A stretch of DNA of 61,284 bases, counting the filler, from Basidiobolus ranarum (Eukaryota), in assembly GCA_040143965.1 (NCBI GenBank). It is 13 parts of 13 records of this genome, joined end to end, with 100 filler letters (N's around TTAATTAATTAA, not from the genome) between each part and the next. Parts side by side here need not be neighbours in the genome. Positions count along the whole stretch, not along the records: positions 33,127 to 37,744 come from JASJQH010001890.1; 12 more parts are not named here. One strand, 5' to 3'. The notes under the pieces are model-generated. The model ran no database searches, had not been told where the DNA came from, and worked only from the letters and a program-made list of their open reading frames with translations. Positions 146-53,399 of this stretch are shown in pieces (the first letter of the stretch is position 1; each line of letters opens with the position of its first letter). Both the position numbers and the translations under genes were made by a program.

Positions 146-147
146 AT

Positions 148-9335: not shown

Positions 9336-9477
9336 CTCCTTTAGGCCTCTTGTAAGCAGTGACACATCCTAGCCTTCNNNNNNNNNNNNNNNNNNNNNNN
9401 NNNNNNNNNNNNNNNNNNNNNTTAATTAATTAANNNNNNNNNNNNNNNNNNNNNNNNNNNNNNNNNNNNNNNNNNNN

Positions 9478-28405: not shown

Positions 28406-28710
28406 GCCTAAAATATCTAAATAAAGGCATGCATATTAATTCAAATTCCTACAGCAGTAAACCTAGTAATTTGCCATTTGAAAATCATATTTTTGCAAAA
28501 ATTGCTGGTTATTGAATAATGCGTGCCAAATTTGAGGATCAATATTTTAACATGTATCAATACCATATAAATACCATCAAGAAACCGCCGTCACACCATC
28601 AAAATCCCTGGCAGAATGCGAGCCAGTGATATTGTGATGGTTCTCTGACAGTTTTGCTATTTTGGAGGGTGGATCCGATCCGGATCAAATCAATTTTATT
28701 TTTGTTAGGG
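28406..28710 (+). mobile_element. Terminal region of CACTA/CMC-like element ending ...TTGTTAGGG
   Basis: Homologous to 52975-53281; homology stops at the same GGG in both copies. Confidence 0.55.
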
Positions 28711-30058
28711 GAAAGCTTTGTTCATAGTGTCTTTAGTCTAGAGCTTTTAATGAATATATTTAAGTATGAATGTATTAAGAATTAATCAAGATTTTCACAG
28801 CCTAACCTAACTTTGATTGTGGCGCACAAAATGAGTTTATACTATACTTTCCTGATACAGTGCTATATCTCATTAGGAAACCAAAGCTATGCTCTACTCT
28901 AGTACTAAAATGGGGAAAAAATCATTATCAAGCATTTACCTGTCCACATGTATTAAGTGAAGGCTCCACATCTGAACAGGAGACTGTAGGTATAAACAAA
29001 CCACAAAGTAGACTGGACCAGCCAACAAATACCACAGTGCATCACTCTCAAGCCACCACTCATGCTGTCCAAAGCAGAGGAACTTTGGCACAATTTAAAC
29101 AACCAACCTAGCATAGAGGCTCAAGCTAAGTTTCTTTTGTGGAAATCTTAAGGAGTCAACAAAAATAACAGAAGCAGATCAGCATGTGTTGCTTCAAGCA
29201 TTGGTAACTCTGGAGTGCCCTTGTTAATACTTACATTATCCTCTCTTTACTGCTTGGCACATCATGTGCAATTGAAATGTATTGAAGTTAAAAATAGCAT
29301 CACTTGCATCATTGTGATCCTGATTGTGTATGTCTTTATCAAACACTGCTGGTGTAAGATCATCACATATCAAAAAAATGCAATGATATCCTACTAATTC
29401 AAACAATAACATCACAAAGATATATGAAAAATGTTTGTCAATCAAAAGCAGGTGCAGCCATATTGGCTTGATAAGGCTCAATCTTTTCATGATCTCACCT
29501 AAATCAAAACTAACAAGATTGAATGAATAAATTACTGATCCAAAAATGATATATCAAGCAATCCTGAACTAAGCTATCTTACTGCAGATCAATTCATTGT
29601 TGAGTGCTGTGATTTTCCACCAGTATGCAAAAACTATTGGTGCTTCATAATACAGGAGCCAATATGTCAAATTGAAGGTGAGGATATTGAGTAAGTGAGA
29701 GATATATGATTACCCTACAAACATAGATGTGTATGGGTTAAATATTTGATTGCATGAGTTAAAGAATAATTTGTTGATTGTCACACATTCCACAATTAGC
29801 AAGTTACAAACTAGGGGTTGTAGTTGCATTGTTACTTACCCAAAAATCCAACTCTGCATGCTAAATTGGGTAACTTGGTACAAGCAGGCACCATGTCTCC
29901 AAAAAATCATTGTTTCTGATTGTGATGGGATGTTGCCATGTTGTAAAATAAAGTGTCCAGTTGAGCATTATATGACCTAGCCATGGTAACAGACTGATTG
30001 CACCAGATTGTGTGTCAGTGGGCTGGTTGGGCTGCACAATCAGACCCAGTCTAATGGC
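28711..30058. mobile_element. Body and right end of hAT-like non-autonomous element
   Basis: 28711-28950 matches 9090-9330. 29238-30058 is the inverted match of 54950-55745 and 55752-56582. Confidence 0.55.
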
Positions 30059-30059
30059 A

Positions 30060-32350
30060 AATTCTTGTGTTGACTAACTTGTAAGGATCTAATTGGTGGC
30101 ATGTAGCAATAACAATAATGCATAGTAAATAGATTTTCAGGCAAGCAAACCTGCATCTTTCAGCATTGAAGATAAGTCCAGCAAAAATAAGATGGTTCAT
30201 AATATCAGTAACATGGGTTGCATGATCATCTGTATCAGTTGAGAAAATTATATCATCATCAACAAACAATAAAGAATGACTAGCATGTTTGAGAATGATT
30301 ATCATAGTGGTTTGAAACTTGCTGGTCAATGTCTTAAGTCCACAGGATGCTCCTTAAAACATCCATTGCATGTTTCCCCATGTGAAAGTGGTCATGTGAA
30401 AGTGGTCATGTGATGCAGGTCTGGATCAATATGAAGTTGGTGAAAAATATCTTTTGTATCCAATTTAGAGAATACTTGTACTGCTGAGTAAAAATGTCAT
30501 TGATCCTAGCAATAGGAAATTTATCATCCTGTAGTAGTTTGTTTAGAGGCCTTGGATGTAAACAAGGTCTTTTTGGCATATGACTTCCTTCCAAATCCTT
30601 CTTTGGTGCTAAGGTCAAAGGGTTGTTGAAGGTAGTGGTGATAGGTACTTGAGTGATGATGCTACTATCAACCTATTTTTGTACTACTTCATCAACTAAA
30701 GGTTGTAGAGTATTTGGAATTGAATATTGTCTTCTCCAAGTTGTTTTTCCGGGTAACATTTTGAAGATCACATGGGACTCTGATATTCTGAGTAAGCTGC
30801 TCTTTGGGATTTTCTGGTTTCCCTCAATAGCAAGTTGAAAAGCCAACTTGACAGAGCTGGCATATGCTTGGAAGGAAGGCAATAATTCTTCTTGCTCAGG
30901 GGTTTCTGAGATTCTTCTGGTTTGCAAACAGAATTAGGCAGTAGAGATTTGCTGAATCCTGGATAAGAGACTGGTAGTCCTCCTGTATTGAAGCCAAGTT
31001 GAGTGTACGTATCCACATCAATAACAACTAATGGTACATCAGGGATATTCATGACTTCCTTGTGTTGTTAAATTTGAGAATTTCCACATCAAATATTGAC
31101 AGAGTTGGTGACTCCTATTCTTGGGGCAGAAACATCTTTGGCAGCAAGAATGATGTTTCAGGTTGCTTTTCTATTTCTAAATTGAACTCTTCAACTATAT
31201 GGGGTGAGACAATAGAGCTGGTAAATCTAGTATCCAATAGTGCTATGTATTGGTGACCATTAAGTAATAAGGGTACTTCAACAGTTTTAAGGTGGTTGGT
31301 TGACTGCTTCTCATCTTTGATGGTGGCAACTTTAGCTCATCAGTCAGGGAGATTTTAGTAGTCTTGTGCCATAAGATTCTTGATACATTTCTTCAAAACT
31401 TTTGAAATCTTCTGCAGGATTGTCATCCACTTCAGATCTTAAATCCTCAAAGACTTGGGTTGGTTTAGCAGTAGGTGCTTTGTTTTATGGACAGGCAGGC
31501 ACTCTACAACCAAGTTCCTTGCATTTAAAGCAATGGTAATCCACATGGAGAATTTCTGTCTTGGTAGTTGGTGTGTTTGGCTTGCCCAATGTTGAGTTTG
31601 CTTAGTGGCTTGATAGGCTAAAGTTCTACAAACATTGGTAGTGTCGGAACCTTTCCCATGAAGTTGGCAGTACTTTGGACTTAAGGGGTTCCTAGCAGAA
31701 TTGGTGTTTTGGAAACTTGATTTATAAGGTTGGCAGTGAGCAGAGTAAATAGTACTACTTGTAGCAGTAAGCATGGTGATTACTATGGAAGCAAATTCTG
31801 AAACCTTATCACAGATACATGTTGGATTTGCAGCTTTAATAAACTCAAGGTTGTTCTGCAGAGTGGTATTGAAGTTTGAGAAAATGTAGGCACTAACTGA
31901 TGGATTGAAGTCTGGTACTCCAGCCTCTTGCATATGTCTTTGGAACCTGTCATGGAAGTGTTGGACAGTTTCCTTTTTTGCATTCTACTTCTCCAAAGAT
32001 CATGGTGCAAGTGGACTTTTTTGAGTGGATCATTAAAATACTTGCAAAAGTGATCTTGGGCATTTTTTCAGGAACTTGTAGCTGGCATGTTGTGTTCTAC
32101 CCAGTCAGCATCTTGCACAATGAGACAAAGCGATTGTAGTCTTGCCCCGTTGGTGAGCAACTAAGACATTGATAAGTATGTAAAGAATTTTAGTGGGATC
32201 TTTGATGGCATTATGTCCTTCTGCAAAGAGAGGTGTGCACTTAGGAATATTGGCTGTACTTGATCTAAGGGTGCTGGTAGGATTAATTGTGGCAGATAGA
32301 AGAGTGGTTCTTTATTGAGATTGGGTGCAAGTTGGCCACTTTTCCATGTT
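30060..32350 (-). mobile_element. Ty3/gypsy remnant: gag, protease, reverse transcriptase
   Basis: FVDDDIIFS...HATHV, TLAPKKD...KRPCLHPRPLNKLLQDDKFPIARINDIF, TWRRQYSIP and a gag knuckle-like KYCQLHGKG..TTNVC; many frameshifts. Confidence 0.85.
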
Positions 32351-33126
32351 CAAAATTGTTAGGACAAGATCATGGAGACTTTCCTTAGCAATGTAGTATA
32401 TAGATAGTTTAGCAAATTTCAACAGATACAGAGTAAAGACCATCAACTTCCAAAATGGCTACTTGGCCAACTATAAAACACCTCTCTGTAGAAAGTTTAG
32501 GATACTAATATTATAACAAGGGACTCTCAGGCAGAACATCATAATGACTTGTATGCAATCATAAGTAAAAACTACAGAGCTGCTTTACAGGCTTTGACAA
32601 GCAGTAATGCTGCAATATTACAATTACTTCAGCATTCTGAAATAACTACCCAACACTTACAGAGTTACCCAACAATGTTACAAGACCTTCAGGAAGCTCT
32701 ACCTGAGCTACAGCAACATGTTGCTCCTATCATCCAATCTAATATGGGATTTCAATCAATCCCACATCATACATATAAGCATCCCCGTCATAATCTAGCA
32801 GAGCAGAATATGAGTTGGATCATTAAGCTGTCATGATTCTGATTGCACATACTGATCCACTGCAAATAGAACTCTTCTATTATTACATTATGACATTATG
32901 TCTGCTATGCCATTGCTTCTTGGCAATCTGGTGTTAGTTCATCCAGATTACTTTATATGGAAGTCATGTTCTTTGGAACATTCCATGAAACCTAACCAAT
33001 CATGTCATCCCACACATAGTGTGTTTNNNNNNNNNNNNNNNNNNNNNNNNNNNNNNNNNNNNNNNNNNNNTTAATTAATTAANNNNNNNNNNNNNNNNNN
33101 NNNNNNNNNNNNNNNNNNNNNNNNNN

Positions 33127-33237
33127 TGTGGCACGATTGACCATTGATTAGGAGCGATTGTATTATTTGAGGATACGTTGCAACTTTGTAAGATTTATTC
33201 TTTTCGAACATGACACATCATGTGCACTTTGGAAGCT
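33127..33237. repeat. 111-bp exact direct terminal repeat of contig 8 (left copy)
   Basis: Identical to 37634-37744 (TGTGGCACGATTG...CTTTGGAAGCT). Confidence 0.95.
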
Positions 33238-33302
33238 TAACGCACAAATGAGTATGTGCTCCCAAGTGTTTTTTAAGTACATCGATTGTATCAAAAGACA
33301 AC

Positions 33303-33386
33303 TCCGAACACCCGGATTTGAACCAGGGACCTAAAGATTGCTATGAACGCTACAGTCTTCCGCTCTACCAACTGAGCTATGTTCGG
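33303..33386 (-). tRNA. tRNA-Tyr(GTA) with intron of about 11 nt
   Basis: CCGAACA/TGTTCGG acceptor stem; GAAGA-CT-GTA-G, intron, A-TCTTT; GGTTCAAATCC T arm. Confidence 0.95.
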
Positions 33387-33527
33387 AGATTATTTAAGCG
33401 CAGAGTATTTCTTGTCGCGAGGACTCCCAGCCTAAGAAGAGATATAGTATAGTTAAGGCCTGTTACATGGTAATTACATACATGTTAAAGTAAGATATCT
33501 ACTCAAAACCAGCACACAAAAGTATAT

Positions 33528-33610
33528 GGAGAGATGGCCGAGTTGGTCTAAGGCGTCACGTTAAGGCCGTGATCTCTTCGGAGGCGTGGGTTCGAATCCC
33601 ACTCTCTTCA
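33528..33610 (+). tRNA. tRNA-Leu(AAG)
   Basis: GGAGAGA/TCTCTTC acceptor; TCACG-TT-AAG-GC-CGTGA; long variable arm; GGTTCGAATCC. Confidence 0.96.
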
Positions 33611-33803
33611 TACCTTTTATATTACTGTACCCGCAACCGTTTTACTGGTTTTTGCTTAGCAAGTAACAATGAAATGCAAATGTGAGATTACATATAGTAA
33701 TCTTTTGATATCATTCCAACAGAAACGCAAACATTTCTCATGATTTAACTGTGCAAAAGTTAGGGCGCTATTTCCAACAAAGCAAAGTCTGGACTGGTAA
33801 AAA

Positions 33804-33876
33804 TGCCTTCTGCCGGAATTGAACCAGCGACCTTCTGCTTACTAGGCAGACGCTCTGCCAACTGAGCCAAGAAGGC
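33804..33876 (-). tRNA. tRNA-Thr(AGT)
   Basis: GCCTTCT/AGAAGGC acceptor; TCTGC-CT-AGT-AA-GCAGA. Confidence 0.96.
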
Positions 33877-34418
33877 ATTCGTACCATATATAGCCATGTA
33901 TATAATATATACTAACAAAAAGCTTTGCCTGCCTTGCATCTATTATATCTTAGCATACATATGAGTAACATAGGTATGGTGGCAATAGAAAATAGGGCGC
34001 CCTGTTTGAGCACATCATAGGTGGGTTCAATTTGCGATTAGCCGTAATACACCAGGAGTATAATTAGAGTACAAGTTGTAAAGCCGTCATGCAGATATTT
34101 TTTATGACTGATTTTATAATTTACACGTGGTTTAAATGATAATATTCACGGTTTCTTAACTAACCCTAACCTTAAAAAGCTAAATCAAGCACTTGGGAAA
34201 TTCTGACTTTTACCACCCAAACCCTTATGTTCCTTGTAATAAACACCAGAATAGAGACGGTGGCACTTCTATAAGTAATAGTAATACGACAGTATTATCG
34301 ACTGCTATCCTAATAAATGTATTTGCAGATAAATAAGCTAAAAGACGGATAAAGATAGACTCTTGGTAGTATACTATATTAGCGGACTAAATACAAAAAC
34401 AAAGGCCTTGCTTCAAAA

Positions 34419-34489
34419 TGCATACTCGGGGAATCGAACCCCGGTCTACCGCGTGGCAGGCGGTAATTATACCACTAAACCAAGTATGC
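34419..34489 (-). tRNA. tRNA-Gly(GCC)
   Basis: GCATACT/AGTATGC acceptor; ACCGC-CT-GCC-AC-GCGGT. Confidence 0.96.
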
Positions 34490-34617
34490 TGTTATTGAAA
34501 CTTGTAAACTTGTTTATACTACGAATCATAATTAGGGGTTGCAACTATATTGTCAGTATTATCGGCTAAATACGTATTTCAAAGATATGCATGGATGTGC
34601 TAAGAGACAGATAATAC

Positions 34618-34690
34618 GGGCGTATGGCCAAATGGATAAGGCGCCTGACTACGGATCAGGAGATTCCAGGTTCGATCCCTGGTATGCTCG
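34618..34690 (+). tRNA. tRNA-Arg(ACG)
   Basis: GGGCGTA/TATGCTC acceptor; CCTGA-CT-ACG-GA-TCAGG; T-run terminator follows. Confidence 0.96.
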
Positions 34691-34885
34691 TTACGTTTTT
34701 CTTTACCGTTGCAATATCGAGTTTATGCAGTGTCATGAAACGATATGGTATTTACACTTTTGGACAACAGGAACTTTATACAAAATTCTTTGTTGCAAGA
34801 ATATATACAAGATAGCTACTCTGGTTTTCGATAATAGGATTCAATTTATAAAAGATTGCCAATACCCAGTTATTTTAAAAATGTT

Positions 34886-34957
34886 TTCCCCATCGGGGAA
34901 TCGAACCCCGGCCGTCTCGGTGAGAGCGAGAAATCCTAACCACTGGACCAATGAGGA
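34886..34957 (-). tRNA. tRNA-Glu(CTC)
   Basis: TCCTCAT/ATGGGGA acceptor; TCTCG-CT-CTC-AC-CGAGA. Confidence 0.96.
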
Positions 34958-35433
34958 ATTGTTATGAAACTTAAAGTATTAGCTAGCTTTCACCTTTAGC
35001 TACCAATATTTATGTATATGTATATCTATATCTGGTATTATACCGCTCCTTAAAATTAACCTAGTCACCAGATACCGTTAAAAATTACAAAAATGTATTC
35101 ATGCTAAAAAAAGGGATACTTTAAGAAGCTCATTGCCTGATGGAAAATCTCTGGGAATGGACAATGCATTTAAGTTACATAAAAGTAAACAACGGAGTCA
35201 AAATATGAGTACAATCAACAATTTAATTCATGCATACAAATCAAGTTGCTTCTGCTGTATCACTCACGTAGCTTAGTTGATTTATCACCTTCATGAATGG
35301 ATCTGATGATAATGGGGGATGACCTTTCTTTCTCCATGGCCAAGGATGTGAAGCCCAACAATATGCCATGTTCCAAAGTACTAAACAAGAAGTATCGTAC
35401 TTATGTGTATGGGGGAGGTTTTTTCCCATTCTC

Positions 35434-35481
35434 TCCCCGCCTGTCATACGGGTGACCCGGGTTCAATTCCCAGTTTGAGAG
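35434..35481 (+). pseudogene. 5'-truncated tRNA-Asp(GTC) (anticodon arm, T arm and 3' acceptor strand only)
   Basis: CCCGC-CT-GTC-AT-ACGGG TGAC CCGGG-TTCAATT-CCCAG TTTGAGAG then a T5 run; no D arm or 5' acceptor strand upstream. Confidence 0.8.
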
Positions 35482-35849
35482 CATTTTTGAGTTTACTCCC
35501 GGTATACAGATATAGATATTGTATATCTGACTTAAACTTAACCCACACAGATGAATTGGTTAATTTTGGAGCAACCCGAGTACTACAATCCTTGAAACAC
35601 TATACTTCAAGGCATACATTTGCTATTTGGAGCTTTCACTTCTGGCATTATATTCAACAGAATACAGAAGAAAACAATTCAATATTAGTATTTTTGACAT
35701 CAACACTTTTGCTGTCAATGTAAAAATAGTATAACGTTGAAAGTATGTCATTGTTTCGCCAAAAGTAGCATATGCGAGCTTAGTCTTCAAGTTGGCAATC
35801 TAATGCTCAACATCATCGATATGACTCTTCATAGGCCTGAGAAAAAGAT

Positions 35850-35921
35850 GGGCTCAACTGGGAATTGAACCCAGGACCTCTCCCACCCTAAGGGAGAATT
35901 ATACCACTAAACCATTGAGCC
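35850..35921 (-). tRNA. tRNA-Pro(AGG)
   Basis: GGCTCAA/TTGAGCC acceptor; CTCCC-TT-AGG-GT-GGGAG. Confidence 0.96.
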
Positions 35922-36044
35922 AATGTTGAGCAAAAGCTAGCCGTATTTGCTTATATATCCAAGAAACCGAAATTGCTGTCTGTAGTTCCACTGCATACTA
36001 ATAATAACAAGATAACATAACAGCACTAGGCTTATTAATATAAT

Positions 36045-36117
36045 GGGGGTCTAGCTCAGATGGTAGAGCGCTCGCTTAGCATGCGAGAGGCACTGGGATC
36101 GATACCCAGGTCCTCCA
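36045..36117 (+). tRNA. tRNA-Ala(AGC)
   Basis: G3:U70 identity pair; CTCGC-TT-AGC-AT-GCGAG; ATCGATA T loop. Confidence 0.96.
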
Positions 36118-36215
36118 CTTTTATTTGGTTAAATTAAAAAGGTATTTTCTTAACTATTGTACTAAACAAAGAGATTGACGGCAACTTTCGAATTCATGGA
36201 AAGGAAATGCTAAAA

Positions 36216-36287
36216 AGGACGCAGGCGGATTTGAACCACCGACCTATTGATCTGCAGTCAATTGCTCTACCACTGAGCTATACGTCC
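36216..36287 (-). tRNA. tRNA-Cys(GCA)
   Basis: GGACGTA/TGCGTCC acceptor; U73 discriminator; ATTGA-CT-GCA-GA-TCAAT. Confidence 0.96.
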
Positions 36288-36635
36288 ATGTATAGATTGT
36301 TTCAACATTATTAATCTACAAATATCAAGACCTATCGGTTGGTTCTAGGATAAATATCATTTGATATAGTATACTTGAATGTAAAATTAATATACACACA
36401 CCCGACATGAGAGTAAAGCACATAACCGTATGATCAAGGTTTCATACCTATTGGGCAAGCGAGTATCCGCGTGGCTATGTAAGCGTTGGTTTTTTTCTGA
36501 AGTTCCGTAGAACTTTAGTAGAATTTGCCTGCGCATAAGTTACAATTCTAAGTACACACGAATCCAAAGAGTTTCAAGCTATCAAAAGAGAAAATCTTCA
36601 TAGTAAAGTAAGTACACATCCGGTAAAAAAGAGAC

Positions 36636-36708
36636 TGCTCCCTGCCAGGATCGAACTGGCGACCTTCAGATTATGAGACTAACGCGCTGCCAACTGCGCT
36701 AAGGAAGC
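36636..36708 (-). tRNA. tRNA-Met(CAT), elongator
   Basis: GCTTCCT/AGGGAGC acceptor (G1:C72); TTAGT-CT-CAT-AA-TCTGA; TTCG T loop. Confidence 0.95.
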
Positions 36709-36874
36709 AATTTCTTGCAGGTAGAAACTGCCATTACACCTGACGAGTTTAACTCAAACGAGAAGCACAAACAAAGGAGGGCTAATGATAAGAGTGCATC
36801 TGAAATACAGGATTTCCAGAGCGTACAGAACTTCCAAAAGTAATATACTTATAAGGATAATTAAAATGTATGCA

Positions 36875-36946
36875 TTCCCCATCGGGGAATCGAACCCCGG
36901 CCGTCTCGGTGAGAGCGAGAAATCCTAACCACTGGACCAATGAGGA
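36875..36946 (-). tRNA. tRNA-Glu(CTC), second copy
   Basis: Identical to 34886-34957 but with different flanks. Confidence 0.96.
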
Positions 36947-37345
36947 ATAGTTAGTATGTACAATATGATAAGTCAAAGCCATTTGGTTAGGCATGAAAGT
37001 CGAGCATTCCATATCAATATGCATCACCTCCAAGAAGGGTCACATTCTTTAGCGACTTTAAGAGCTGGCATAAGGCAATTGAGGGATTCATTGTTGAAGT
37101 CAGATATTGTATATTAGGACAGTCTAGGCTAAGGGTGGGTATTGTTATAGGGTTAGGAATCTGAAGTTTTACTCTATCGGACCAAGTCAAACAATGATTC
37201 CTGCTTGAGTACCATAAACATATCGGTGGATGTTAGCTTTAAATAGTATTTCCCTTGTCAATCAACTCAAGGATATATACACTTTTATATCGAGCATCTT
37301 ACATAGCAGGTTGTGAAATATAAAAGCAACCAAAAGAAGAAAATA

Positions 37346-37374
37346 TGCCGTCTCTGCGGATTGAACGCAGGACA

Positions 37375-37411
<37 letters not shown>

Positions 37412-37418
37412 AGACGGC
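37346..37418 (-). tRNA. tRNA-Phe(GAA)
   Basis: GCCGTCT/AGACGGC acceptor; TCAGA-CT-GAA-GA-TCTGA; intronless. Confidence 0.96.
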
Positions 37419-37633
37419 TATACACAAGACTTGGTTTGTTTTGAAAATACGCTTGGCTAACAACAATAGCAACACTATGAGTACTCATACTATAGCAGTA
37501 AAAAGCGTACTCTTGTCAGATGAAAGAGGAGCCTAGCCTATGTGCACCAAGTTTTACTTGAACCTAGTCTTCAGCGTGGCAATTTTTAAATGATAATTGT
37601 TCGGATCGTCGTTACTGCACTGGTTAATGCTAT

Positions 37634-37744
37634 TGTGGCACGATTGACCATTGATTAGGAGCGATTGTATTATTTGAGGATACGTTGCAACTTTGTAAGA
37701 TTTATTCTTTTCGAACATGACACATCATGTGCACTTTGGAAGCT
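37634..37744. repeat. 111-bp exact direct terminal repeat of contig 8 (right copy)
   Basis: Identical to 33127-33237. Confidence 0.95.
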
Positions 37745-37857
37745 NNNNNNNNNNNNNNNNNNNNNNNNNNNNNNNNNNNNNNNNNNNNTTAATTAATTAA
37801 NNNNNNNNNNNNNNNNNNNNNNNNNNNNNNNNNNNNNNNNNNNNGAATTTAGCAACA

Positions 37858-37931
37858 GCTCGCATAGCTCAGTTGGTTAGAGCGTGGTGCTAATAACGCC
37901 AAGGCCGCAGGTTCGACCCCTGCTGTGAGCA
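37858..37931 (+). tRNA. tRNA-Ile(AAT)
   Basis: GCTCGCA/TGTGAGC acceptor; TGGTG-CT-AAT-AA-CGCCA. Confidence 0.96.
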
Positions 37932-38177
37932 AATCCTTTTGCAATAAGGACGCATCCAGTATTGGTCTATGATTTTATTAATACATAGCTATTCTATTCA
38001 AGGAATACATATTATTCAACTAGTCATCTATATCTCACTCAGTTGAATTTTAGCATAGTTCGTAGTTCCATATTCACACACACATTAAAACATGAAGTTG
38101 GTTGAGACATTATATTGTCTCTGAAATTGCCGTCACTTTTTGTTCAGTAATCCAATTTCGTAACAACCATACGAATA

Positions 38178-38250
38178 GGCCCTGTAGCTCAGTGGAAAGA
38201 GTGTCTCCCTCCGGAGGAGAAAGTCGTGGGTTCGACCCCCACCTGGGTCG
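38178..38250 (+). tRNA. tRNA-Arg(CCG)
   Basis: GGCCCTG/CTGGGTC acceptor; TCTCC-CT-CCG-GA-GGAGA; TTTT terminator. Confidence 0.94.
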
Positions 38251-38593
38251 TTTTGTAAGCGACGGCTTTGGGATTGGAGCCTTAGTGATGGTTCGAAGAT
38301 TGCGATCAGTGTTCCACAGTTATCCTGCAAAGCTGAATTTAATTAGTCTACTGATCCCACCTGTTGGTTTTCCCACTGACTCGACTTAGTCCTGCAGATG
38401 ATCATTCAGGATTGCTCCAAAGGAAAGGTATCACTCGATTGATACCGTTTGAAGTATAACTATTACAATTTGAATATGTACTTTTCATAATCCTGAAATC
38501 AAGGTTTTCGAGGAGCTGCGTTCGTGGTATCATTGATTAGTAAAAAGTAAACAATTCATCTTCATGCAAGCATCAATTTCTAGTTTCAAAGTA

Positions 38594-39400
38594 ATGACAG
38601 TTGAAAGCGGTAATGGTAGCTTTGGTACTCCGATCCTTCAAGCATTGTTAGCACGTGGCCCACTCCAGGTGAAAATTTTATCCAGAAGAGCACGGGTATG
38701 AATAGCAAAGATGCTAATCAGAACTCTAACAACTTCTTCGTAATTTCACTCTTACAAGATTGACGTAGCCATCATAGGCTATTCTAACAATGGCACCCTG
38801 GTATAGGCATTGAAAGCTGTCGTTGTTGTCATCAGAGTCCTAAAAGATCATGCCATCACAGAGACACAGTCGGTTGTATTAAAGATATCTAAGCAAACAG
38901 GTATAAATGGTTTGTTCCTTCCGAGTTCGCCACTGATGCCGAAGGGTAATGGGAGTGCTTTTCATCATCAATAAGTAATCATCCTCTTATGTTCTATATT
39001 TTAACTAGCACCAATGCATCTTCCAGAAGAGAAAGCCTTATTTGAGAGCCTAGTAGAATATTTGTGGATGCCTTGAAACAATCTGATCTGTCTCATACAA
39101 TCTATAAAAATGGATTGTAGAATATGTCACTTCTCCATTGTTTGTTATCGATATAGCTGCTGGACCTATCAAGCCCTACGGAAAGGGACACGCCCCATTA
39201 CTTAGTAATCAGTGACAGGGATGTTGCTCACTTTGTAACAGCTGCCATTGAAGACCCATAAAATGAAAACCGAGTTTATTATATTGCCGGAGATAATACA
39301 AGCATGAATCAAATAGTGAATTCGATAGAACAAAGGACCAAGACTTCACTCACGGTGACCCATGTGGAGAGATCAGATCTAAAGGTATGTAAATATCTCT
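38594..39400 (+). pseudogene. NmrA/isoflavone-reductase-like oxidoreductase pseudogene
   Basis: G.G.FG.PILQALL...VKILSR, then an in-frame TAG in TLV*ALKAV, a frameshift before WFVPSEF, and later DRDVAHFVTAAIEDP*NEN. Confidence 0.7.
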
Positions 39401-40033
39401 CTGAAAGTTAGTTGTATTTCTCCGGCTGTTTCTGCAGACATTGGCGCTTTAGTGATGGCTTTAGTAATTGCGAGCTGTGTTGGAAAGGTACAAATATGAA
39501 ACTAATAATATGATGAGTGCTATATTGACTTAGGCGAGAATAGTAAGTAAGAATGGAGTAAGTGTTGTTTTGAATTCTCAGGCTATATTTGTTAACTCCA
39601 TAATTATATTTATAGATATTTAACCTTTTAAGAAACAGTCATTTTAGAACGTTTCTTGGTTAGTAAGTAATTTCATATTTCCTTTGTTTACTTAATTGCA
39701 CAAAGGTTGAGATTTGCTTATGCTTTATATGTGTGCGAAATATTGGGTTGATTGAGGCAGTATATTGTCTCCGAAAATGCCATTGCTTTTTGTCTGATAA
39801 TCCAGTTTCATAACCAACAAGTGTTATAGTTCTATCAATAAAATATAAAAGGACCTGCTTTATTGCTAGTTGCTTATACTTCTATTTACACGCACTACTT
39901 GTTTGATCTATATATTAAGTTGGCTTTAGGTAGCAAGACTTCGTTATGGTGATATAACTTGGTTGACGCTACTTTGATCAGTCTATATACTATATATAGA
40001 CTTGATTAACTTTGGTTTCAAACACAACCAGCT

Positions 40034-40115
40034 GGTGAGATGGCCGAGTGGTCTAAGGCGCTGCGTTCAGGTCGCAGTCTCTTCGGAGGCGTGGGTTCGA
40101 ACCCCACTCTCATCA
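40034..40115 (+). tRNA. tRNA-Leu(CAG)
   Basis: GGTGAGA/TCTCATC acceptor; CTGCG-TT-CAG-GT-CGCAG; long variable arm. Confidence 0.96.
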
Positions 40116-40411
40116 CGTTTTAGGCTAATTTTATTTTATGTAATCAATGAATATTCTATGATTCAACGATGTATACAATTCCAAATGTAATATATGTACA
40201 AATGATAAATGCTATACATAAGCTATTGCAAATTAAGTTAGAAAGATGGCATATCTTTCATCAGTGTATCCTTTTCTAACATGCACTTATTATTATTGTA
40301 ACGATACCGAGATATTAGAATAAAAGAATATGGGTAATTACGCGAGAGCCAAGTGTCTCTCAACTGTTACATGTGTTGGAGGTTATTGTTAACAAGGCGG
40401 TTATCACAAAA

Positions 40412-40484
40412 GGCCCTGTAGCTCAGTGGAAAGAGTGTCTCCCTCCGGAGGAGAAAGTCGTGGGTTCGACCCCCACCTGGGTCG
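40412..40484 (+). tRNA. tRNA-Arg(CCG), second copy
   Basis: Identical to 38178-38250; about 60 bp of 3' flank is also shared. Confidence 0.94.
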
Positions 40485-41995
40485 TTTTGTAAGCTATAGC
40501 TTTGGGATTGGAACATTAGTGATGGTTCGAAGGTTGTGATAAGCGTTCTCTATATATACTTCTATATCAGTGATATGATGGAAGAATACTTGTTATCAAT
40601 CCATATGTACCCCATCAAAACATTGTCTCTGAATAGATTGTTATGAGTTTAGATGAATAAATCGTAGTTAATCAAGTACCATATTATTAGAGTAATGACA
40701 TTAATTGCTTTGAAGGAGCTTTAACCTCAAAGTTAAACTTACATTTTTAGTTCTACTAGTACTCATATGCCAGAAATTTGACATGGTCTCTGGTGCATGT
40801 AAAGAATGTTTCTGTATTTTACTTGTGCCTTCCACAAATGAGTTATATGTTTCCTAAATATTCCTACCGATCAAGTCTCTCATGACGGTTATCAACGGAG
40901 ATTACTGGCTATTTCTGCAAGATCCAATCAGACGTTTATGGTAAATGATAGCACCATGTCGGCTATAAATAGGACTTCTATATACGATGATATTTTCCAT
41001 TTCGACCAAAGTACCTCTCTGTTTAGGCTGAAAACAACCATCAATGGATTTTCAATACAACAATATATGTATAGCAAAGGGGCTTCATTACAGTATAGAA
41101 TAATAAATTATAAATCAACTACTGCTTATTTCATACATATATTCTCACTATTACTCAAAGATCCGTAGTTAAACAATAATAGTAAATGTATATTTACCTG
41201 TATTCCCCAGCAAAATTCTAGCTTCACCAGATCAAGAAATTTGTAATTCATTAGAGGTTTGGTGAATATATATACATTCCAAGAAAGAATCATGTTGCAG
41301 AAAAAAGCAAAAAATTGCCAATTTTCCATGTCATGAACATGCTTCAAGAAACTGAAAAAGGAAGAGACTACTTTTTTCGTTCCAATGGTTGAAATTGGAT
41401 GGAAGGTGTATATCAATTCATATACGAACATGTAGCTAAAATAACAGTATTTGTTGATTTCAAAAGATTAAAAATGATTCTCAAGTCAGTAACGGCGATA
41501 CCCGGGTTGCAATCCGAGTACACCTGGGTTTTTCTAATCAAAAGTTAGTCATAACACCCGGTTTACATCATAAGAAAACTAATTGTTATTATAAAATAAC
41601 AGGTAAAAGTTTCCTACTGAGAATTAATTGACAACTGAGAGATTCAGTTCCTTTTTGACCGAATTCTAAAGCAATTTGAATTATGGGATTCTGATTATGT
41701 TAAGAATTTTCGTTTGGTAATTTCAGAAATTTTTTCATTCATTTGATTTCACGCGTATTAAGATTTTTTGCATAGGTAGGTTGAGGATAATATTTATAAA
41801 TAAGGGAATAGAGTTTGTATAATATATGAGGATATCCAGGAAGTTGTAAACGTTTTCCCCCAAGTATATGGGTTATAGTTTATGGGCTAAGCATCATCAA
41901 TAGGTACTTATTTATTAATAATTAATTTTAGTTATTCAAAACAAACATTATTTCTACATTGGATGAAGTTATAGGTGATTTGGATGGGTGTGCAT

Positions 41996-42291
41996 TTATC
42001 GCTTAGGTTTCCTGTTCAACCAAACAAACAGTACGAAAACTGCCACATTAAAGGCATAGTACGCCCACAGAATGCCAAAGTTTCTCCACCTATGATCGAT
42101 GGACCATTCAAATACTCGAAGAAATTCTGCGCCACTCGAGTATTCACAGTACTTACATACATCAGTAGCTGATGGATCCTGTAAATAACCAGTAGCGTAC
42201 TTCAACCATTCGGCACTGTACGCACCACACGTTTGGCCACTTGGTGGAGTGAATCGCGTGAAATCGGCCTCTTCACATCTTACTACCATGT
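41996..42291 (-). CDS. PDR/ABCG transporter, C-terminal fragment
   Basis: VRC...FTPPSGQTCGAY...GYL.DPSATDVCKYCEYSSG.EFL...RWRNFGILWAY..FN is the PDR C-terminal extracellular domain and last TM helix. Confidence 0.88.
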
Positions 42292-42556
42292 TGTTGAAAA
42301 TGGTTGGTGTTAAGTTCTGAGTTTGAGGAGCTACCGAATTTTTCCTGATTTTAGCCAAATCGAAAATTAGTAAAATCGACTTGGCACTGTGATTTGAATG
42401 AAATCAAAGTCAGATCGCAAATTCAGAAGGATCAACTTTTCAAAAATTACTAATCGNNNNNNNNNNNNNNNNNNNNNNNNNNNNNNNNNNNNNNNNNNNN
42501 TTAATTAATTAANNNNNNNNNNNNNNNNNNNNNNNNNNNNNNNNNNNNNNNNNNNN

Positions 42557-42654
42557 CATTTCACTTTCCGTTGACGGCACATATCACAAGCTCTTCCTAT
42601 CCTCCGTCTCCTTTGAGGAGTAGAGCTTGCTGCACTATCGTTGCTCGTGGCCAT
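42557..42654 (-). CDS. Zn(II)2Cys6 transcription factor, 5' end (truncated by contig edge; absent from ORF track)
   Basis: MATSNDSAASSTPQRRRRIGRACDMCRQRKVKC from the ATG at 42654. Confidence 0.85.
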
Positions 42655-43312
42655 TTAGGTATGATATAAGTGATAGAGAGAAATGGTAACCCACACTTGG
42701 AAATAAATGAATCAAATTTCGTAAAGCGGAACCACAAATCTCATCACTAGACAGTCAAATCAGATTAAGGAGTAATTCCGAGGCTATTGGGTTTAACTAT
42801 TCCATATGGGAAAACTGAGAGATTCATCCGTGTCCACCCACATTGTATCATTCATTTCAAATATGCGCCCTTGATGACTAGAAAATCAGTAAGCATGTGA
42901 ACCCTGGTACCTGAGTGGTCTATTGTAGAATTGTCTGCTATCAGATACAGGGTTAGGCAAATGGTGAATGGCTCATGCTGATGCTGAATCATCTGATTTA
43001 ACCTATCATATCATGTTATCAGCGGTATGGGTCGTGCTTATCAAGCACAAAGACGTGAAAAATAATCATTCATGGAGCATAGAATTAGGATTGGAGTTAG
43101 GACTAATGAGTCTATGTTACATTTGTGAGGACCATGAACTTGTTCTCGTGATTTGGTAGGGATTCATGTTTAGGGTTGATTGAAACCACGCCGTAGCGCC
43201 TAACCATAATCAATAAATCATAACTTGTCCTTCTAATAAATCAGTGTGGAAGTATATGTATAGTTATTCATTAACTTTAATCAGATTGTGTAGATTATCG
43301 TGGTAGTGTTGT

Positions 43313-44641
43313 TTATGCTACGGGCTGTTGCTGTTGATACATATGATTGAATGGTGTTCTTCTGCTTAGGAGTAACCCTTTGATACTTCGAATATCCGAG
43401 CGGATTTGTGCAGGTAATCCAGAGCGATGTTCAGCTTGCAATTTGTAAATAGAGAAGTATCCAGTACTACCTAAGGATCTAGTTAAATCGTAGAACGATG
43501 CTTTCACCTCATCCATAGCCCTTTCTCTAGATTTATTGATTTCCTGATAAACCATCAATTGAGTTTCGAATTTTTGTAAAGTCTGTCGTAAAGAATGGCC
43601 GGATTTTTCAAGGGATTTCACTGTGATTCCTTCTGAGGTTTCTTCTTCACTATGGAGTGTTTGATGATAGGTGACTAATTCATCATGGAATTTCTGGAGG
43701 CTCTTCGATTGTTGTTCATATCGCAAATGCTGTTCTTGGGTAAAGGAATTGCGAATAGGCAACATTGCCAGCTTGACTAATCCCAAAAGACCAGCAGTGA
43801 CACCACTTGTAATCATTAAGGCAACTATCGTATTACGTATACGTTCTGCATTAGGGTTTGGCGCCACTAAAATAGAGATCTGTTGTGGAGCTAAACTAGG
43901 TTGATTATATGTGCGGGGAGGGACTGGAGGAAGGCCGGTGGCTTGATTGTTACTAATACAAGGATCTTACTATTTGTCGGGAAATAAAGTAGGCATAAAG
44001 TAGTAACTTACATAATTGGAGTACTATTGGATGGAGAAAGCTAACCAGAATATCAATTCATTAGTACCACGCTAGAATGTTTATTAAGAGAAATTCTCGC
44101 TTACCTCAGTATGACCACCTTTGAGGGAAACCTTCTCAAGTGCCATATCAATTTCAGCTTGTGTGAGTCCTTTTTTCTTTAAAAAGGCAATCTTTTTGGA
44201 TAGAGGGGCAGTTTGAACGTTTGGTGAGTTCAAAAAGCTTAACGCTTGAGCAATCATTGGAGGTCTTGGCTCAGGCTCACTATCGTTGGGGTTTGGTTCG
44301 GTTTTTTGTATGCTGGGGCTCACTTCAGTGGGAATAGAGGCTTCGACAATTGCTGGTTTTTCTACAATTGGAACTGGGTTTGTGATTGTAGAGTCTACTG
44401 GAGGAGCTTGAGATTGTCGTGCTTGTTGTTGGCGCTTGAGAAGCTCCTCTCGACGTTGTTGTCTCTGTTCAACAGCACTCGAAGGATTTTCTGTTGCAAT
44501 GGTATTATCGGCTACTACGGGAGAAAGATCATTGCCTGAATGTTCGTTTTCAGAAACCTCAAATGTATTCGAAGATGCCTCGGAACCATTAAATGAATCT
44601 CCTTCGAAAGAGTTGGGAGAAGAAGGGTGGTTGTCAGACAT
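43313..44641 (-). CDS. PEX14: Peroxisomal docking protein Pex14
   Basis: Exons 44641-44105, 44040-44012 and 43952-43313. ALSFLNSPNVQTAPLSKKIAFLKKKGLTQAEID (Pex14_N), TM segment, coiled coil and IRSIKGLLLSRR. Confidence 0.92.
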
Positions 44642-45027
44642 TTAATGTTTCTCCAAAAAACAGAGATAAAGAGGAGTAAGGTGATTACAGAAAATATGAA
44701 GTAGTGTATAGAGCAAACGACCAAATGGAGATATAAGAGGAAGAACCATGTGACTTTCATCTATTTCTATATAATATTGATAATCATAAAACTGCTTACG
44801 AAAAAATGAAATCGTACTAAGCATCGTGTATCACTCATTCTCTACATCTTTATATAAACTGATATACGTATCAATTTGAAATTCCTTTAAAATAGCCTCC
44901 GAGATAATCAAATATATGAGTGAGTTTAGTAAATTTTCAAATAGTTATCTAAATAAGCTACAAAAATATTATGGATTAGTTTCAAATCCAAGTACCTGAT
45001 CTTGGTTAAACACACCTGCTCAAGTAT

Positions 45028-46065
45028 ATGAACAAAATAGCCGTATACATAGCACAAGGCCACGGCTTTCTTCGGGATGCAACAGGTAACTTTGATATCC
45101 TCTTGATTTTCCGTTCGCCAAACATAAACCAAGTTCTTTAGCTGCTTGTACCCTGAGGAGTGAATATAGGATCGTGGGTGTTTTGGTTGGATCCTTACCT
45201 CGCTTACCACTACAAAATAGCTTCTTTTCATTACCAATTTTACTGATGCCCGAGGAAGTTACTTTTCTGTTGGAAAAAGGTCGATCACTTGTTGCTTTCT
45301 TTGACTAACTTTCCTTTACGATTTACTTATAAGTTGTCGATACCCAGGACTTGTAAGCTTAATTGACGATAAAGATAGTTACAGGGAACCTACAGAAGCT
45401 GAGATAGAGGAGTATCAGGGAAATTTATCTCGAGAGGAGCATTTTCGACAACAATTGTTTGAAGAGAAAAAGCGAAATAATCCTAAAGCTCAGGCGAATT
45501 CTATTGATGTGGATTTGAAGGTTAATGGAAAAAGTGAAGAGGAAATCCCTTCTATACCAACTCAAGAACTTCGCAAAACGAGGAAAGCTGTGAAAGTCCC
45601 AACTTCCTCTAGTCAATATGCTTGGCACGATCCTAAGAAGGTGTATGATACCATCGAAGAAGCTAGAGCTAATGGTGTATGGGAATTTCCCTCCACTGCT
45701 GCCGAGAAACTTCGATACAAAGTATTTGTTGATCTAAGGGAGAAAGGCTATTTCATTACCCCAGGGTCCAAGTTTGGTGGCGATTACTTGCTTTATCCAG
45801 GTTAGTTTATCTGTATTTGTTAAACCCATTCCCAGTCTGCAAGAAACATAACCACTTTTACACCGATCTTCTTCTAGCCGACCCCCTTCGATATCATTCC
45901 CATTTTGTTGCCTCAATAGTTCCATATGATAAGGAATTAATGCCAGTTGATTTGGTAGGTTTTGGAAGGTTAGGTTCAGCTGTAAAAAAAAGTCATCTTC
46001 TTTGTAGCTATGATTTGGTTCATGATAGTTTCAAATATTTTTGTGTGGAGTGGACAGGCATGTAA
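45028..46065 (+). CDS. SEN34: tRNA-splicing endonuclease subunit Sen34
   Basis: Exons 45028-45085, 45142-45279, 45348-45800 and 45878-46065. GVLVGSLP..PLQN...LP.LLMPEEV, GYFITPGSKFGGDYLLYP.DPLRYHSHF and GRLGSAVKK motifs. Confidence 0.94.
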
Positions 46066-46332
46066 ACTTGTGATTCTTGGCTATTTATATACTGTAGATT
46101 TGTCGCCTTTCCTGTAATACTCTGAAGCACTTAAAAGTAAAATATTAGAAAACATCATTTTGACACATATGTTTTGGAGATGCAAAATCAGTACTGATGC
46201 TTGAGAGATAGTTACTCATTGCGAGAGAAAAAGATATTGAATTTATCCATGGGGACGGAGCTGTGTCTCCGTGAGAGCAAAGTCAAATATTCTGATACCA
46301 CTTCAAGGACCTTGAACTTTATTAGTTGATAT

Positions 46333-47167
46333 TGTTGGAATTAGCTTTGCCTAAACACCTATATAGTCATATATAGCTTAGTACTTAGTTATCTTATAAT
46401 TCACTAAGATATTATCCATTATTCTGATAAGGAATTTACTTAGAATATTGACACCAACTTCAAAGTTCTCAGATATATAGATTTTTTCAAACTTGTGCTA
46501 GAAGCCCCAAACTTTGCACACATGTTCCTGGGATCTTCCTTAACACATTCTACACGTTTGTTTGTTTACATCTTGACAAAACTATAAATGTCAACTTTCT
46601 ACTCAATAAATTGATAAGTGAAAACCACCAATTCCTCTAATTCTCCAAACCACTTCCAACAGGCTCCCAGATACTTTAACAGGCTATGAGCCCCAAGCTT
46701 GCACTATCTGTAATGTCTACTTCTCAAATCTATGGAACTTTTCCCTCTTCTGAAAAATTGGATGGAACCAATTATCAAGTTTGGAAAATTAAAATGAAAA
46801 TGCTGCTGCAACAAAAAGGACTTTGGGACACTGTTGTAGGAAAAGAAAACAATGCAAAACTATCTGAAACCTAAACTTCACTCCAAGTTAAAAAAGAACA
46901 ACGTGCCTTTAACAAAATGTCTTAATGTTAAAGACAAATTGCTAATTCAATGTTCAAGAGCTAAAACTGCCAAGAAGGTATGGAAAGCCTTGGAAGACAC
47001 TTACCAAACAGTTCTGCTGCCAACAAGATGCTTCTAAGAAGACAATTCTTTAACTGAAAGATGAAGCCAGGAGAAGACATTAAATCACTAATTAATAGAG
47101 TCACTATTTTAGTGGATGAAATGGAATGCATTGGAGTACCTACCACTGATCAAGATATCATAGTTAC
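46333..47167 (+). mobile_element. Ty1/copia element 5' end: LTR (46333-46681), PBS, disrupted gag
   Basis: LTR TGTTGG...TTAACA followed at once by GGCTATGAGCCC, then EKLDGTNYQVWKIKMKMLLQQKGLWD with downstream stops. Confidence 0.92.
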
Positions 47168-47267
47168 NNNNNNNNNNNNNNNNNNNNNNNNNNNNNNNNN
47201 NNNNNNNNNNNTTAATTAATTAANNNNNNNNNNNNNNNNNNNNNNNNNNNNNNNNNNNNNNNNNNNN

Positions 47268-47472
47268 GAAGGTCCCAGAAACATGTGTGCAAAGTTTGGG
47301 GCTTCTAGCACAAGTTTGAAAAATCTATATATCTGAGAACTTCTAAGTTGGTGTCAATATTCTAAGTAAATTCCAATTTAGAATAATTGATAATATCTTA
47401 GTTCATTATAAGATAACTGAGTACTAAGCTATATATGACTATATAGGTGTTTAGGCAATGCTAACTTCAACA
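47268..47472 (-). mobile_element. Partial copia LTR (cut by contig edge)
   Basis: Reverse complement of the first 200 bp or so of the 46333 and 48086 LTRs, starting TGTTGAAG at 47472. Confidence 0.9.
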
Positions 47473-47638
47473 TATCTGAAGTCCAAAATCTGCCGCGGAA
47501 AGGGCTCACTTGGTAGCAACATATCAAAGTACAATTGTAATACTCTGAGATGACTGCATCAGTAGCATTCTGAACAAAATTACAAACATCTCAGAGTTCT
47601 GAACTGAAAAATAGCTTTTGAAGGAAAATACTTAAACA

Positions 47639-47968
47639 TGTTGAAATTAGCATAGCCTAAACACCTATATGGTCATATATGGCTTAGTATTTAGTTATTC
47701 TATATTTCATTAAGATATCAATCATTATTCTCAAGAGGGGTTTATTTAGAAGTTCTCAGATGTATAGATTTCTCAAACTTGTGCTAGAAGACTCAATCCT
47801 TACACACATGTTCCTGGGACCTTCCTTGACACATTTTACATGCTTGTCTGTTTACATCTTGACAAAACTATAAATGCTAACTTTCTACTCAATAAATCAA
47901 TAAGTGAAAACCACCAATTCTTCTAGTTCTCCAAACCACTTCCAATAAACTCCCAAAATACTTTAACA
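47639..47968 (+). mobile_element. Copia solo LTR with AAACA target-site duplication
   Basis: TGTTGA...TTAACA; AAACA at 47634-47638 and 47969-47973. Confidence 0.92.
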
Positions 47969-48085
47969 AAACACTGACCATTAGTAAGTCTCTTCCACGT
48001 GTATTTCAGATATCTGTGAAAGTGTTTCAAAGAAGTGTATCTGAAAAGAAAATAGAATAGTGGCATAAGCACATGATATATCGAC

Positions 48086-48433
48086 TGTTGAAATTAGCAT
48101 TGCCTAAACACCTATATAGTCATATATAGCTTAGTATTTAGTTATCTTATAATTCACTAAGATATTATCAATTATTCTAAATCGGAATTTACTTAGAATA
48201 TTGACACCAACTTAGAAGTTCTCAGATATATAGATTTTTCAAACTTGTGTTAGAAGCCCCAAACTTTGCACACATGTTCCTTGGACCTTTCTTAACACAT
48301 TCTACACGTTAGTTTGTTTACATCTTAACAAAACTATAAATGTCAACTGAATACTCAATAAATCAATAAGCGAAAACCACCAATTTCTCTAATTCTCCAA
48401 ACCACTTCCAACAGGCTCCCAAATACTTTAACA
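48086..48433 (+). mobile_element. Copia solo LTR with TCGAC target-site duplication
   Basis: TGTTGA...TTAACA; TCGAC at 48081-48085 and 48434-48438. Confidence 0.93.
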
Positions 48434-49333
48434 TCGACCACCATTTCATAGAGCCTTGTTCAACATCTAAGAGCTGTCATCAATATGTAAGTGAAAGAAA
48501 GTACTTGTATGTACCCTGAGTTGTTGGGAGATTGTCGAGAAATTTAGATCAGTATGAGAAATATAGTTGTTGCGAGTAGAACTTGATCTTCAGAAAGCAA
48601 GCCATAATCACGATCCAGACATATCAGTACATATACGTGCTTACCTGCAATATTGCAACTAGTATCCTTTATATACTGAAAGGTATCTTTAGTTACCATA
48701 CATACAGAATATACTGATGCTGTTATTCTATCATCCTGATGTACCAATTGGGATACTCTAACTATACTGCCTCTAGTCAACTAAGATTAAACTAGCGCTA
48801 ATACATGCATAGGTAGAAATTGTAATTAAGTTAACTATACTCTACACATGTTACACTTACTATGTTACGGCATAGTGTTTAAGCTCAGTAGCCCATAACT
48901 TGCATGCATAGCAAACGAAATCCTAATCCGTAATTTTGATATTATGGATTGAAGTTGCATAGGTCTGGCATATTCAGTGATGCATCATATTCAACGAAGC
49001 CGTTGCTAGCATTACAAGTATGCACCTGTAACCTAAAAACCCGTTTGGATTGGATAAGTCAATAATTGCCAACGGTGGTATTACAATTCCATAATATTTC
49101 ATCAGAAATAGCAATGTAACATTATTCGATTAGAAAAGTTCTTTCCTTACTATGACGACTATCATTTGTATACGATTCATGGATCATACATAGTGTATGG
49201 TCCTGTTTAATGATGATGTGCATATTTTATACAAATGTGTAATTGACTTATGCTCTAATAAAAGTAAGAGAATGCGAAATAATTATGGCAAGTCGGAATC
49301 CTAGGGGTAGAGTGGTGGGGAGCCGATCTTCAA

Positions 49334-53281: not shown

Positions 53282-53399
53282 TATATACTTGGGTATCACA
53301 GACAAAAAGGCTTGATTAATCTAATCATCCCACTTGTGGCATGATTAATTTGCAAGCTTGGATCACATCTTGCCAAAAAGTCCATTAAATATCTTGGTG

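Follow-up and report, generated by a model that had tools for sequence, protein, structure and literature searches.

Does a short contig that carries a dozen transfer RNA (tRNA) genes and ends exactly as it begins represent an ordinary gene cluster, a free circle, or one unit of a repeated array? We address this question for a contig of the fungus Basidiobolus ranarum that spans positions 33127-37744 of the window, i.e., the whole stretch of 61,284 bases analyzed here. The window consists of 13 contigs placed end to end, longest first (4639 down to 4602 bp), with linkers between them in which TTAATTAATTAA is flanked by 44 N on either side (for example, at 33027-33126 and 37745-37844); since these are separate contigs, neighbors in the window say nothing about adjacency in the genome. 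The tRNA contig is the eighth, and its 4618 bp coincide exactly with the positions given in the preliminary description of this locus. The reading that we favor, with somewhat more confidence than doubt, is that this contig represents a single 4507-bp copy of a nuclear tRNA gene block that is arranged head to tail in a chromosomal array and was collapsed in the assembly.

The evidence for repetition lies at the contig ends. The first and last 111 nt are 100% identical, both in the repeat finder and in BLAST (111/111), which bears out the identical ends and the 4507-bp period claimed in the preliminary description of this locus. Because both outer edges of the 111-nt repeat are the ends of the contig, no mismatch is visible that would terminate it, and no tRNA gene crosses the junction when the unit is searched as a circle. 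An end overlap of any kind occurs in 1 of the 13 contigs, namely this one. The construction of de Bruijn graphs implies that a closed path always gives a contig that starts and ends with the same k-mer, and hence with an exact overlap of length k. A direct repeat present in two copies around unique DNA would give identical contig ends only where the repeat is exactly k long; a repeat longer than k would form an edge of its own, so that the middle contig would begin with the end of the repeat and stop with its start. A tandem duplication of two units would normally be traversed into its flanks or be broken without overlap. An exact overlap of odd length at both ends of 1 contig in 13 thus indicates a cycle in the graph, and this reasoning supports the earlier claim that such an overlap reflects a closed path. 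The cycle, in turn, would stem from a circle or from a tandem array whose path round the loop carries far more weight than any exit. In the latter case, a short-read assembler would have merged the copies in a closed path and written the 111-nt k-mer at both ends; 111 is a plausible final k, and some pipelines use it as their largest for reads of 125-150 nt. It is this end overlap that suggests head-to-tail repetition; the chromosomal location, the copy number, and the homogenization of such an array are presumed.

The same considerations bear on a different explanation, in which the contig is a low-copy structure or the product of an assembler quirk: a cluster flanked by short direct repeats, a duplication in two copies, or an artifact of path extension or trimming. 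On that explanation, the contig would hardly deserve to be called an array. For a two-copy repeat to leave identical ends, it would have to equal the k of the assembler exactly, and the overlap observed here matches without exception along 111 nt, an odd number like any k value, and is confined to a single contig; on the other hand, 13 contigs inside 37 bp of length mean that the assembly must be very fragmented, in which odd contig ends are to be expected, and the other tRNA-bearing contig of the window (the ninth, 37845-42456) shows an old, diverged duplication and not a homogeneous array. We regard such a low-copy origin as rather unlikely, and the collapsed chromosomal array as the better account of the ends.

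The gene content of the contig is clear. The same 12 tRNA genes (Table 1) are recognized by ARAGORN and by the Rfam tRNA model, in the order Tyr-Leu-Thr-Gly-Arg-Glu-Pro-Ala-Cys-Met-Glu-Phe; nine are encoded on the minus strand, and the other three are on the plus strand. Their Rfam scores are 53-72 bits, compared with a gathering score of 29. Each gene has a run of four to six T's within 12 nt downstream of its 3′ end and none encodes CCA; matches to the B-box motif fall within the tRNA genes, and all 12 show internal A and B box regions and a cloverleaf. Five carry A34 anticodons (AAG, AGT, ACG, AGG, and AGC), the decoding pattern of the eukaryotic cytosol. By these signals, the 12 are intact tRNA genes of the nuclear type, of the kind that RNA polymerase III (Pol III) reads from type 2 promoters. 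An organellar or bacterial origin is ruled out by the A34 anticodons, the intron of the Tyr gene, the absence of CCA, and the T-run terminators.

Individual genes required closer reading. For the first gene, ARAGORN offered Thr(tgt) when no intron was allowed and Asp(gtc) with an intron inside the anticodon, and both labels were dropped; with the 11-nt intron removed at the canonical 37/38 site, the program calls Tyr(gta), 75 nt, which indicates that the Tyr label given previously was right. The rest of the earlier list (Leu, Thr, Gly, Arg, two Glu, Pro, Ala, Cys, Met, and Phe) is likewise correct according to ARAGORN and Rfam. From hand reading, the tRNA-Met(CAT) gene looks like the elongator type, with G1-C72 and an ordinary T loop. 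The two Glu-CTC genes are the same but for the last base, and their flanks are alike for ~5 nt on each side (alignments of 84 nt at 96% in the repeat finder and 93 nt at 93.5% in BLAST). Since this likeness is limited to the gene and a few flanking bases, the unit was not assembled from recent subrepeats. What had been described as a "half Asp" is real: the sequence preserves the 3′ part of a tRNA, with GTC at the position of the loop and a perfect B-box match at 35460-35470, and it is absent from the Rfam results at E ≤ 1. It has neither a D arm nor a 5′ half, and given the missing 5′ half it is probably a pseudogene.

Table 1. tRNA genes and related features of the eighth contig, followed by the tRNA genes of the ninth contig (positions in the window)
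Feature	Position	Strand	Basis
Whole contig: one 4507-bp unit plus 111-nt closure	33127-37744		contig boundaries, end comparison
End overlap, copy 1, inside Phe-Tyr spacer	33127-33237		100% identity
tRNA-Tyr(GTA); 11-nt intron after position 37, C1-G72, A73, TTTT 6 nt downstream	33302-33387	-	ARAGORN, Rfam, hand reading
tRNA-Leu(AAG); T4 terminator	33527-33611	+	ARAGORN, Rfam
tRNA-Thr(AGT); T4 terminator	33803-33877	-	ARAGORN, Rfam
tRNA-Gly(GCC); T4 terminator	34419-34489	-	ARAGORN, Rfam
tRNA-Arg(ACG); T5 terminator	34617-34691	+	ARAGORN, Rfam
tRNA-Glu(CTC), copy 1; T5 terminator	34885-34958	-	ARAGORN, Rfam
3′ tRNA remnant: GTC anticodon arm, T arm, 3′ acceptor strand; TTTTT at 35484-35488	35436-35483	+	motif and hand reading
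tRNA-Pro(AGG); T5 terminator	35850-35921	-	ARAGORN, Rfam
tRNA-Ala(AGC); T4 terminator	36045-36116	+	ARAGORN, Rfam
tRNA-Cys(GCA); T4 terminator	36216-36287	-	ARAGORN, Rfam
tRNA-Met(CAT); T6 terminator	36635-36709	-	ARAGORN, Rfam
tRNA-Glu(CTC), copy 2	36874-36947	-	ARAGORN, Rfam
tRNA-Phe(GAA); T4 terminator	37346-37418	-	ARAGORN, Rfam
End overlap, copy 2	37634-37744		100% identity
tRNA-Ile(AAT), ninth contig	37858-37931	+	
tRNA-Arg(CCG), ninth contig, first	38178-38250	+	
tRNA-Leu(CAG), ninth contig	40034-40116	+	
tRNA-Arg(CCG), ninth contig, second	40412-40484	+	

By the A and B boxes inside it and the T run that terminates it, each of the 12 genes is a Pol III unit in its own right. The mixture of strands and the spacers of 99-891 nt between the genes likewise point to separate transcription units and not to cotranscription. 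The spacers have a GC content of 0.347; tRNA sequence makes up ~20% of the unit, at a density of 2.7 tRNA genes per kb. In its make-up of 12 genes, one remnant, and spacers, the unit is tRNA-only, as in multi-tRNA arrays.

Little else was detected in it. None of the 10 longest stop-to-stop open reading frames (ORFs; 64-143 aa) matches Pfam at E ≤ 0.1, and no replication or partition gene is found among them; none of the eight ATG ORFs of the contig is present exactly in the protein collection. There is no long inverted repeat in the window except the N linkers, no terminal inverted or long terminal repeat, and Tandem Repeats Finder (TRF), run over 33127-42456, returned only three tiny tandem repeats of 2-3.5 copies. 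Rfam found neither rRNA nor 5S anywhere in the window, and no non-tRNA family at gathering score in the unit; weak rows for Plastid-ycf2, mascRNA, YrlA, and U8 are below gathering and lie mostly on tRNA genes, and we set them aside as chance or tRNA likeness. With no protein domain, no long inverted repeat, and only three tiny tandem repeats, nothing points to a mobile element or a self-replicating plasmid, and both were rejected for want of a Pfam domain and of terminal inverted or long terminal repeats. The absence of a protein gene or recognizable transposon, noted before, was thus confirmed both by the Pfam search and by the lack of transposon-type ends. When the 143-aa ORF was compared with 5.8 billion proteins, it had three matches, all of them translated tRNA-Arg-ACG genes. 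Ramicandelaber brevisporus P0121 and P0122, which have consecutive locus numbers on one 35,476-bp contig, are annotated as "hypothetical proteins" but correspond to tRNA-Arg(ACG) genes translated in frame, whose flanks are similar; in this other zoopagomycote, a duplicated tRNA gene has thus likely given rise to spurious gene models.

These results also bear on the other object that would close a path in the graph: a free circle of 4507 bp (an episome or extrachromosomal circular DNA, eccDNA) that carries tRNA genes only and would either persist in the nucleus or be regenerated there continually, possibly after recombination between units had released it from a chromosomal array. A circle, too, would yield an exact end overlap of length k, and a cycle without flanks would most simply be a circle, but high-copy arrays can produce the same graph. 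In keeping with a circle, the only sequence common to the unit and the other 12 contigs is a stretch of 84 nt at 85.7% identity between tRNA-Leu(AAG) and the tRNA-Leu(CAG) gene of the ninth contig, although this check covers just 12 other contigs of the assembly. With a protein domain in none of the 10 ORFs, the circle would have no replication gene. No 4.5-kb tRNA-only nuclear circle of fungi was found in the literature searched, and we know of none. We consider a free circle improbable, and the chromosomal array remains the reading that we prefer.

The window contains 16 tRNA genes, all on 2 of its 13 contigs, and the other 11 contigs have none. On the ninth contig, a duplication of 141 nt, 93% identical, surrounds both Arg-CCG genes, with its copies 2234 bp apart; judged from the sequence, it is an older, diverged local event. 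A weaker match of 68 nt lies near it. The cluster and the duplication on this second contig indicate that the genome clusters tRNA genes and duplicates them locally. An Rfam match to the U8 small nucleolar RNA on the same contig (41485-41623, minus strand; 28.8 bits compared with a gathering score of 41, E 0.044) is probably due to chance. The trinucleotide composition of the spacers of the unit correlates with that of the other 12 contigs at r 0.82-0.94, and the maximum, 0.944, is reached with the ninth contig.

These comparisons help to assess whether the contig is fungal or derives from another eukaryote in the sample, such as a host animal or a protist that has tRNA arrays. Basidiobolus inhabits the guts of amphibians and reptiles, as described in the available part of the Basidiobolus genome paper (PMC7466969), and the classic examples of tandem tRNA repeats come from Xenopus and Entamoeba; moreover, the contig lacks a protein gene from which its origin could be read. 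Its spacer GC of 0.347 and its trinucleotides nonetheless agree with those of the other contigs, most closely with the second tRNA contig; the same assembly holds that second tRNA cluster, and the spacers contain no short tandem repeats of the Entamoeba histolytica type. Two of the three matches of the 143-aa ORF, although weak evidence, come from the zoopagomycote Ramicandelaber. The fungal origin stated earlier is supported by the acetyl-CoA hydrolase/transferase encoded on another contig of the window (49334-50821, minus strand), which shows 89% identity to Basidiobolus meristosporus and 85% to a B. ranarum protein, with chytrids next at ~60%. A foreign source thus appears highly improbable to us, and we continue to read the contig as part of a probable fungal chromosomal array.

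If the block is repeated, its repetition would multiply the dosage of 11 isoacceptors jointly, and these are mostly readers of the commonest codons. The codon counts come from 1749 codons in four window ORFs with Pfam support, a small sample in which one ORF is a fragment of a nonribosomal peptide synthetase (NRPS) gene and may be foreign. In six of the seven families that have several isoacceptors, the isoacceptor of the unit reads the most used codons: ACT and ACC account for 85 of 107 Thr codons, GGT and GGC for 59 of 90 Gly codons, CGT, CGC, and CGA for 57 of 92 Arg codons, CCT and CCC for 51 of 83 Pro codons, and GCT and GCC for 91 of 116 Ala codons. For Leu, CTT and CTC (80 of 197) form the largest block, yet TTG (44) and TTA (36) together also reach 80. 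These counts fit a role of the unit tRNAs in bulk supply. The copies would stay alike through unequal crossing-over or gene conversion, as happens in ribosomal DNA (rDNA), in 5S arrays, and in the tRNA repeats of Xenopus, Entamoeba, and Phytophthora. We therefore put forward, tentatively and with less confidence than we have in the array itself, that Basidiobolus holds its bulk supply of major tRNAs in an rDNA-like, homogenized, high-copy array of a 4.5-kb unit of 12 genes, which possibly sheds circles.

Several points weigh against the array. The sole junction is the 111 nt itself, and two copies are therefore indistinguishable from hundreds. The spacer correlations, at r 0.82-0.94, are slightly below the 0.91-0.95 seen among the other contigs themselves. 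Glu is the exception among the codon families, with GAA at 56 and GAG at 51, though the unit has two Glu-CTC genes. Finally, the search for a relative with the same gene order gave no match in metagenome contigs (two scans), prokaryote contigs, or viral contigs, which are collections not built from fungal genomes. The patterns used were a convergent pair of Ala and Cys T arms with a gap of 100-130 nt and a tRNA-Tyr with free intron length; as a control, the Ala/Cys pattern in a slightly longer form matches the window once. Since the scanned collections are nonfungal, these blank results carry little weight.

The other contigs of the window carry eukaryotic or fungal genes, among them an M16 peptidase, Pex24p, a transposase of the tnp2 type, and a condensation domain. 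Dispersed repeats of 73-95% identity are shared among contigs 1, 2, 7, 10, 11, and 12 (1-9377, 28406-33026, and 42557-56582), and an ORF of the first contig (3667-4548, minus strand) has a Transposase_21 (tnp2) domain; transposon remains seem to be enriched in small contigs of the Basidiobolus assembly. The 12th contig contains a tandem duplication of ~800 bp at 84% identity (54951-56551 in the window; contig positions 2975-3772 and 3777-4575). A reading frame that encodes a complete NRPS condensation domain (56683-58166, minus strand; Pfam E 1.7e-50) stays open into the start of the 13th contig, and this domain fits the many NRPS genes that the available part of the genome paper reports for Basidiobolus (PMC7466969).

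The consequences depend on copy number. In the textbook view, fungal tRNA genes are dispersed, and a multicopy unit would be an exception to that picture. If the bulk-supply model is true, fungi would gain their first described tandem multi-tRNA array, and in species of this kind most tRNA genes would lie hidden in the collapsed contigs of short-read assemblies. A homogenized 12-gene unit would be a handy system for studying the concerted evolution of Pol III genes and a marker for strain typing, as Entamoeba arrays are. A multicopy unit would also mean that tRNA counts are too low in draft genomes of Basidiobolus and perhaps in those of other early-diverging fungi, much as collapsed Phytophthora assemblies are described as having undercounted tRNA genes (PMC9584435). 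Were read depth to prove single-copy, by contrast, the contig would be just a dense tRNA cluster with an odd end.

Tandem multi-tRNA repeats are a known kind of structure in Xenopus, Entamoeba, Phytophthora, plants, and humans. A 2010 survey of 74 eukaryotic genomes gave tandem tRNA repeats as reported, at that time, only in Entamoeba (PMC2888827), and another paper terms tandem tRNA arrays "infrequent in fungi" (PMC9584435). The Basidiobolus genome paper, in its available part, mentions tRNA in other senses only (PMC7466969). The literature searched, which mostly left out subscription journals and supplements, yielded no description of a tandem multi-tRNA array for Basidiobolus, for Zoopagomycota, or for fungi at large; this agrees with the preliminary description, which knew of none described in fungi.

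The prokaryotic and phage tRNA array unit is defined by at least 20 tRNA genes at a density of at least 2 per kb (PMC4758250). We rejected this candidate, since the contig has 12 genes, eukaryote-type anticodons, and a Tyr intron; its density of 2.7 per kb alone fits. Schizosaccharomyces pombe offers a fungal parallel, with clusters of tRNA genes in its centromere repeats that act as heterochromatin barriers (PMC1635290): here, too, many tRNA genes lie close together in the repeated DNA of a fungus, but they are described as sitting within centromere repeats and not in a tRNA-only unit repeated head to tail. In humans, a tRNA variable-number tandem repeat of 7.3 kb at 1q23.3 has a GC-rich unit that binds CTCF (PMC4041453), and in Arabidopsis the unit of the Ser-Tyr-Tyr tRNA array comprises three genes of two kinds (PMC2886086). 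These arrays resemble our reading of the Basidiobolus contig in their kilobase-scale multi-tRNA units, which are reported to be repeated in the tens and to vary in copy number; their lineage and the make-up of their units differ from those of Basidiobolus.

Phytophthora infestans is described as having thousands of tRNA genes in arrays whose units hold one to three genes, such as a Cys unit of 513 nt in 271 copies and a dimer of 850 nt (PMC9584435). The likeness to our reading of the contig would lie in near-identical units, attributed there to unequal crossing-over, and in the collapse of such arrays in short-read and Sanger assemblies, which leads to tRNA undercounts; the differences are that its units are monomers to trimers and that Phytophthora is an oomycete and not a fungus. 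Entamoeba, according to the source, has 25 array units with up to five tRNA genes, some with 5S, which make up more than 10% of the genome, and the spacers of E. histolytica and E. dispar contain complex short tandem repeats (PMC2652664). In both Entamoeba and, on our reading, Basidiobolus, tRNA genes are packed in tandem in uniform units; several arrays cover the tRNA set in Entamoeba, and the Basidiobolus unit covers 11 isoacceptors while the second contig holds others, which resembles this division among arrays. With at most five genes per unit in Entamoeba, as described, compared with 12 in Basidiobolus, which has no 5S, and with only three repeats returned by TRF in 33127-42456, the contig is not an array of the E. 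histolytica type in the narrow sense.

Another close comparison is with Xenopus laevis, in which a tandem repeat of 3.18 kb with eight tRNA genes is known (Müller, Clarkson and Galas 1987, as cited in PMC1635290). The two have in common a unit of a few kilobases, many different tRNA genes that each form a Pol III unit of their own, no protein gene, and, on our reading of the contig, head-to-tail repetition, at densities of 8 genes per 3.18 kb and 12 per 4.5 kb, respectively. Xenopus is an animal with another gene set and fewer genes per unit, and its repetition and copy number were demonstrated by experiment, whereas those in Basidiobolus are deduced only from the overlap of the contig ends. 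If the model is true, the 12 genes per unit would exceed the 8 of Xenopus, the up to 5 of Entamoeba, and the up to 3 of Phytophthora. An array that is real and of high copy number would then be not a new system but a known kind with an unusually large unit, in a lineage without a described example.

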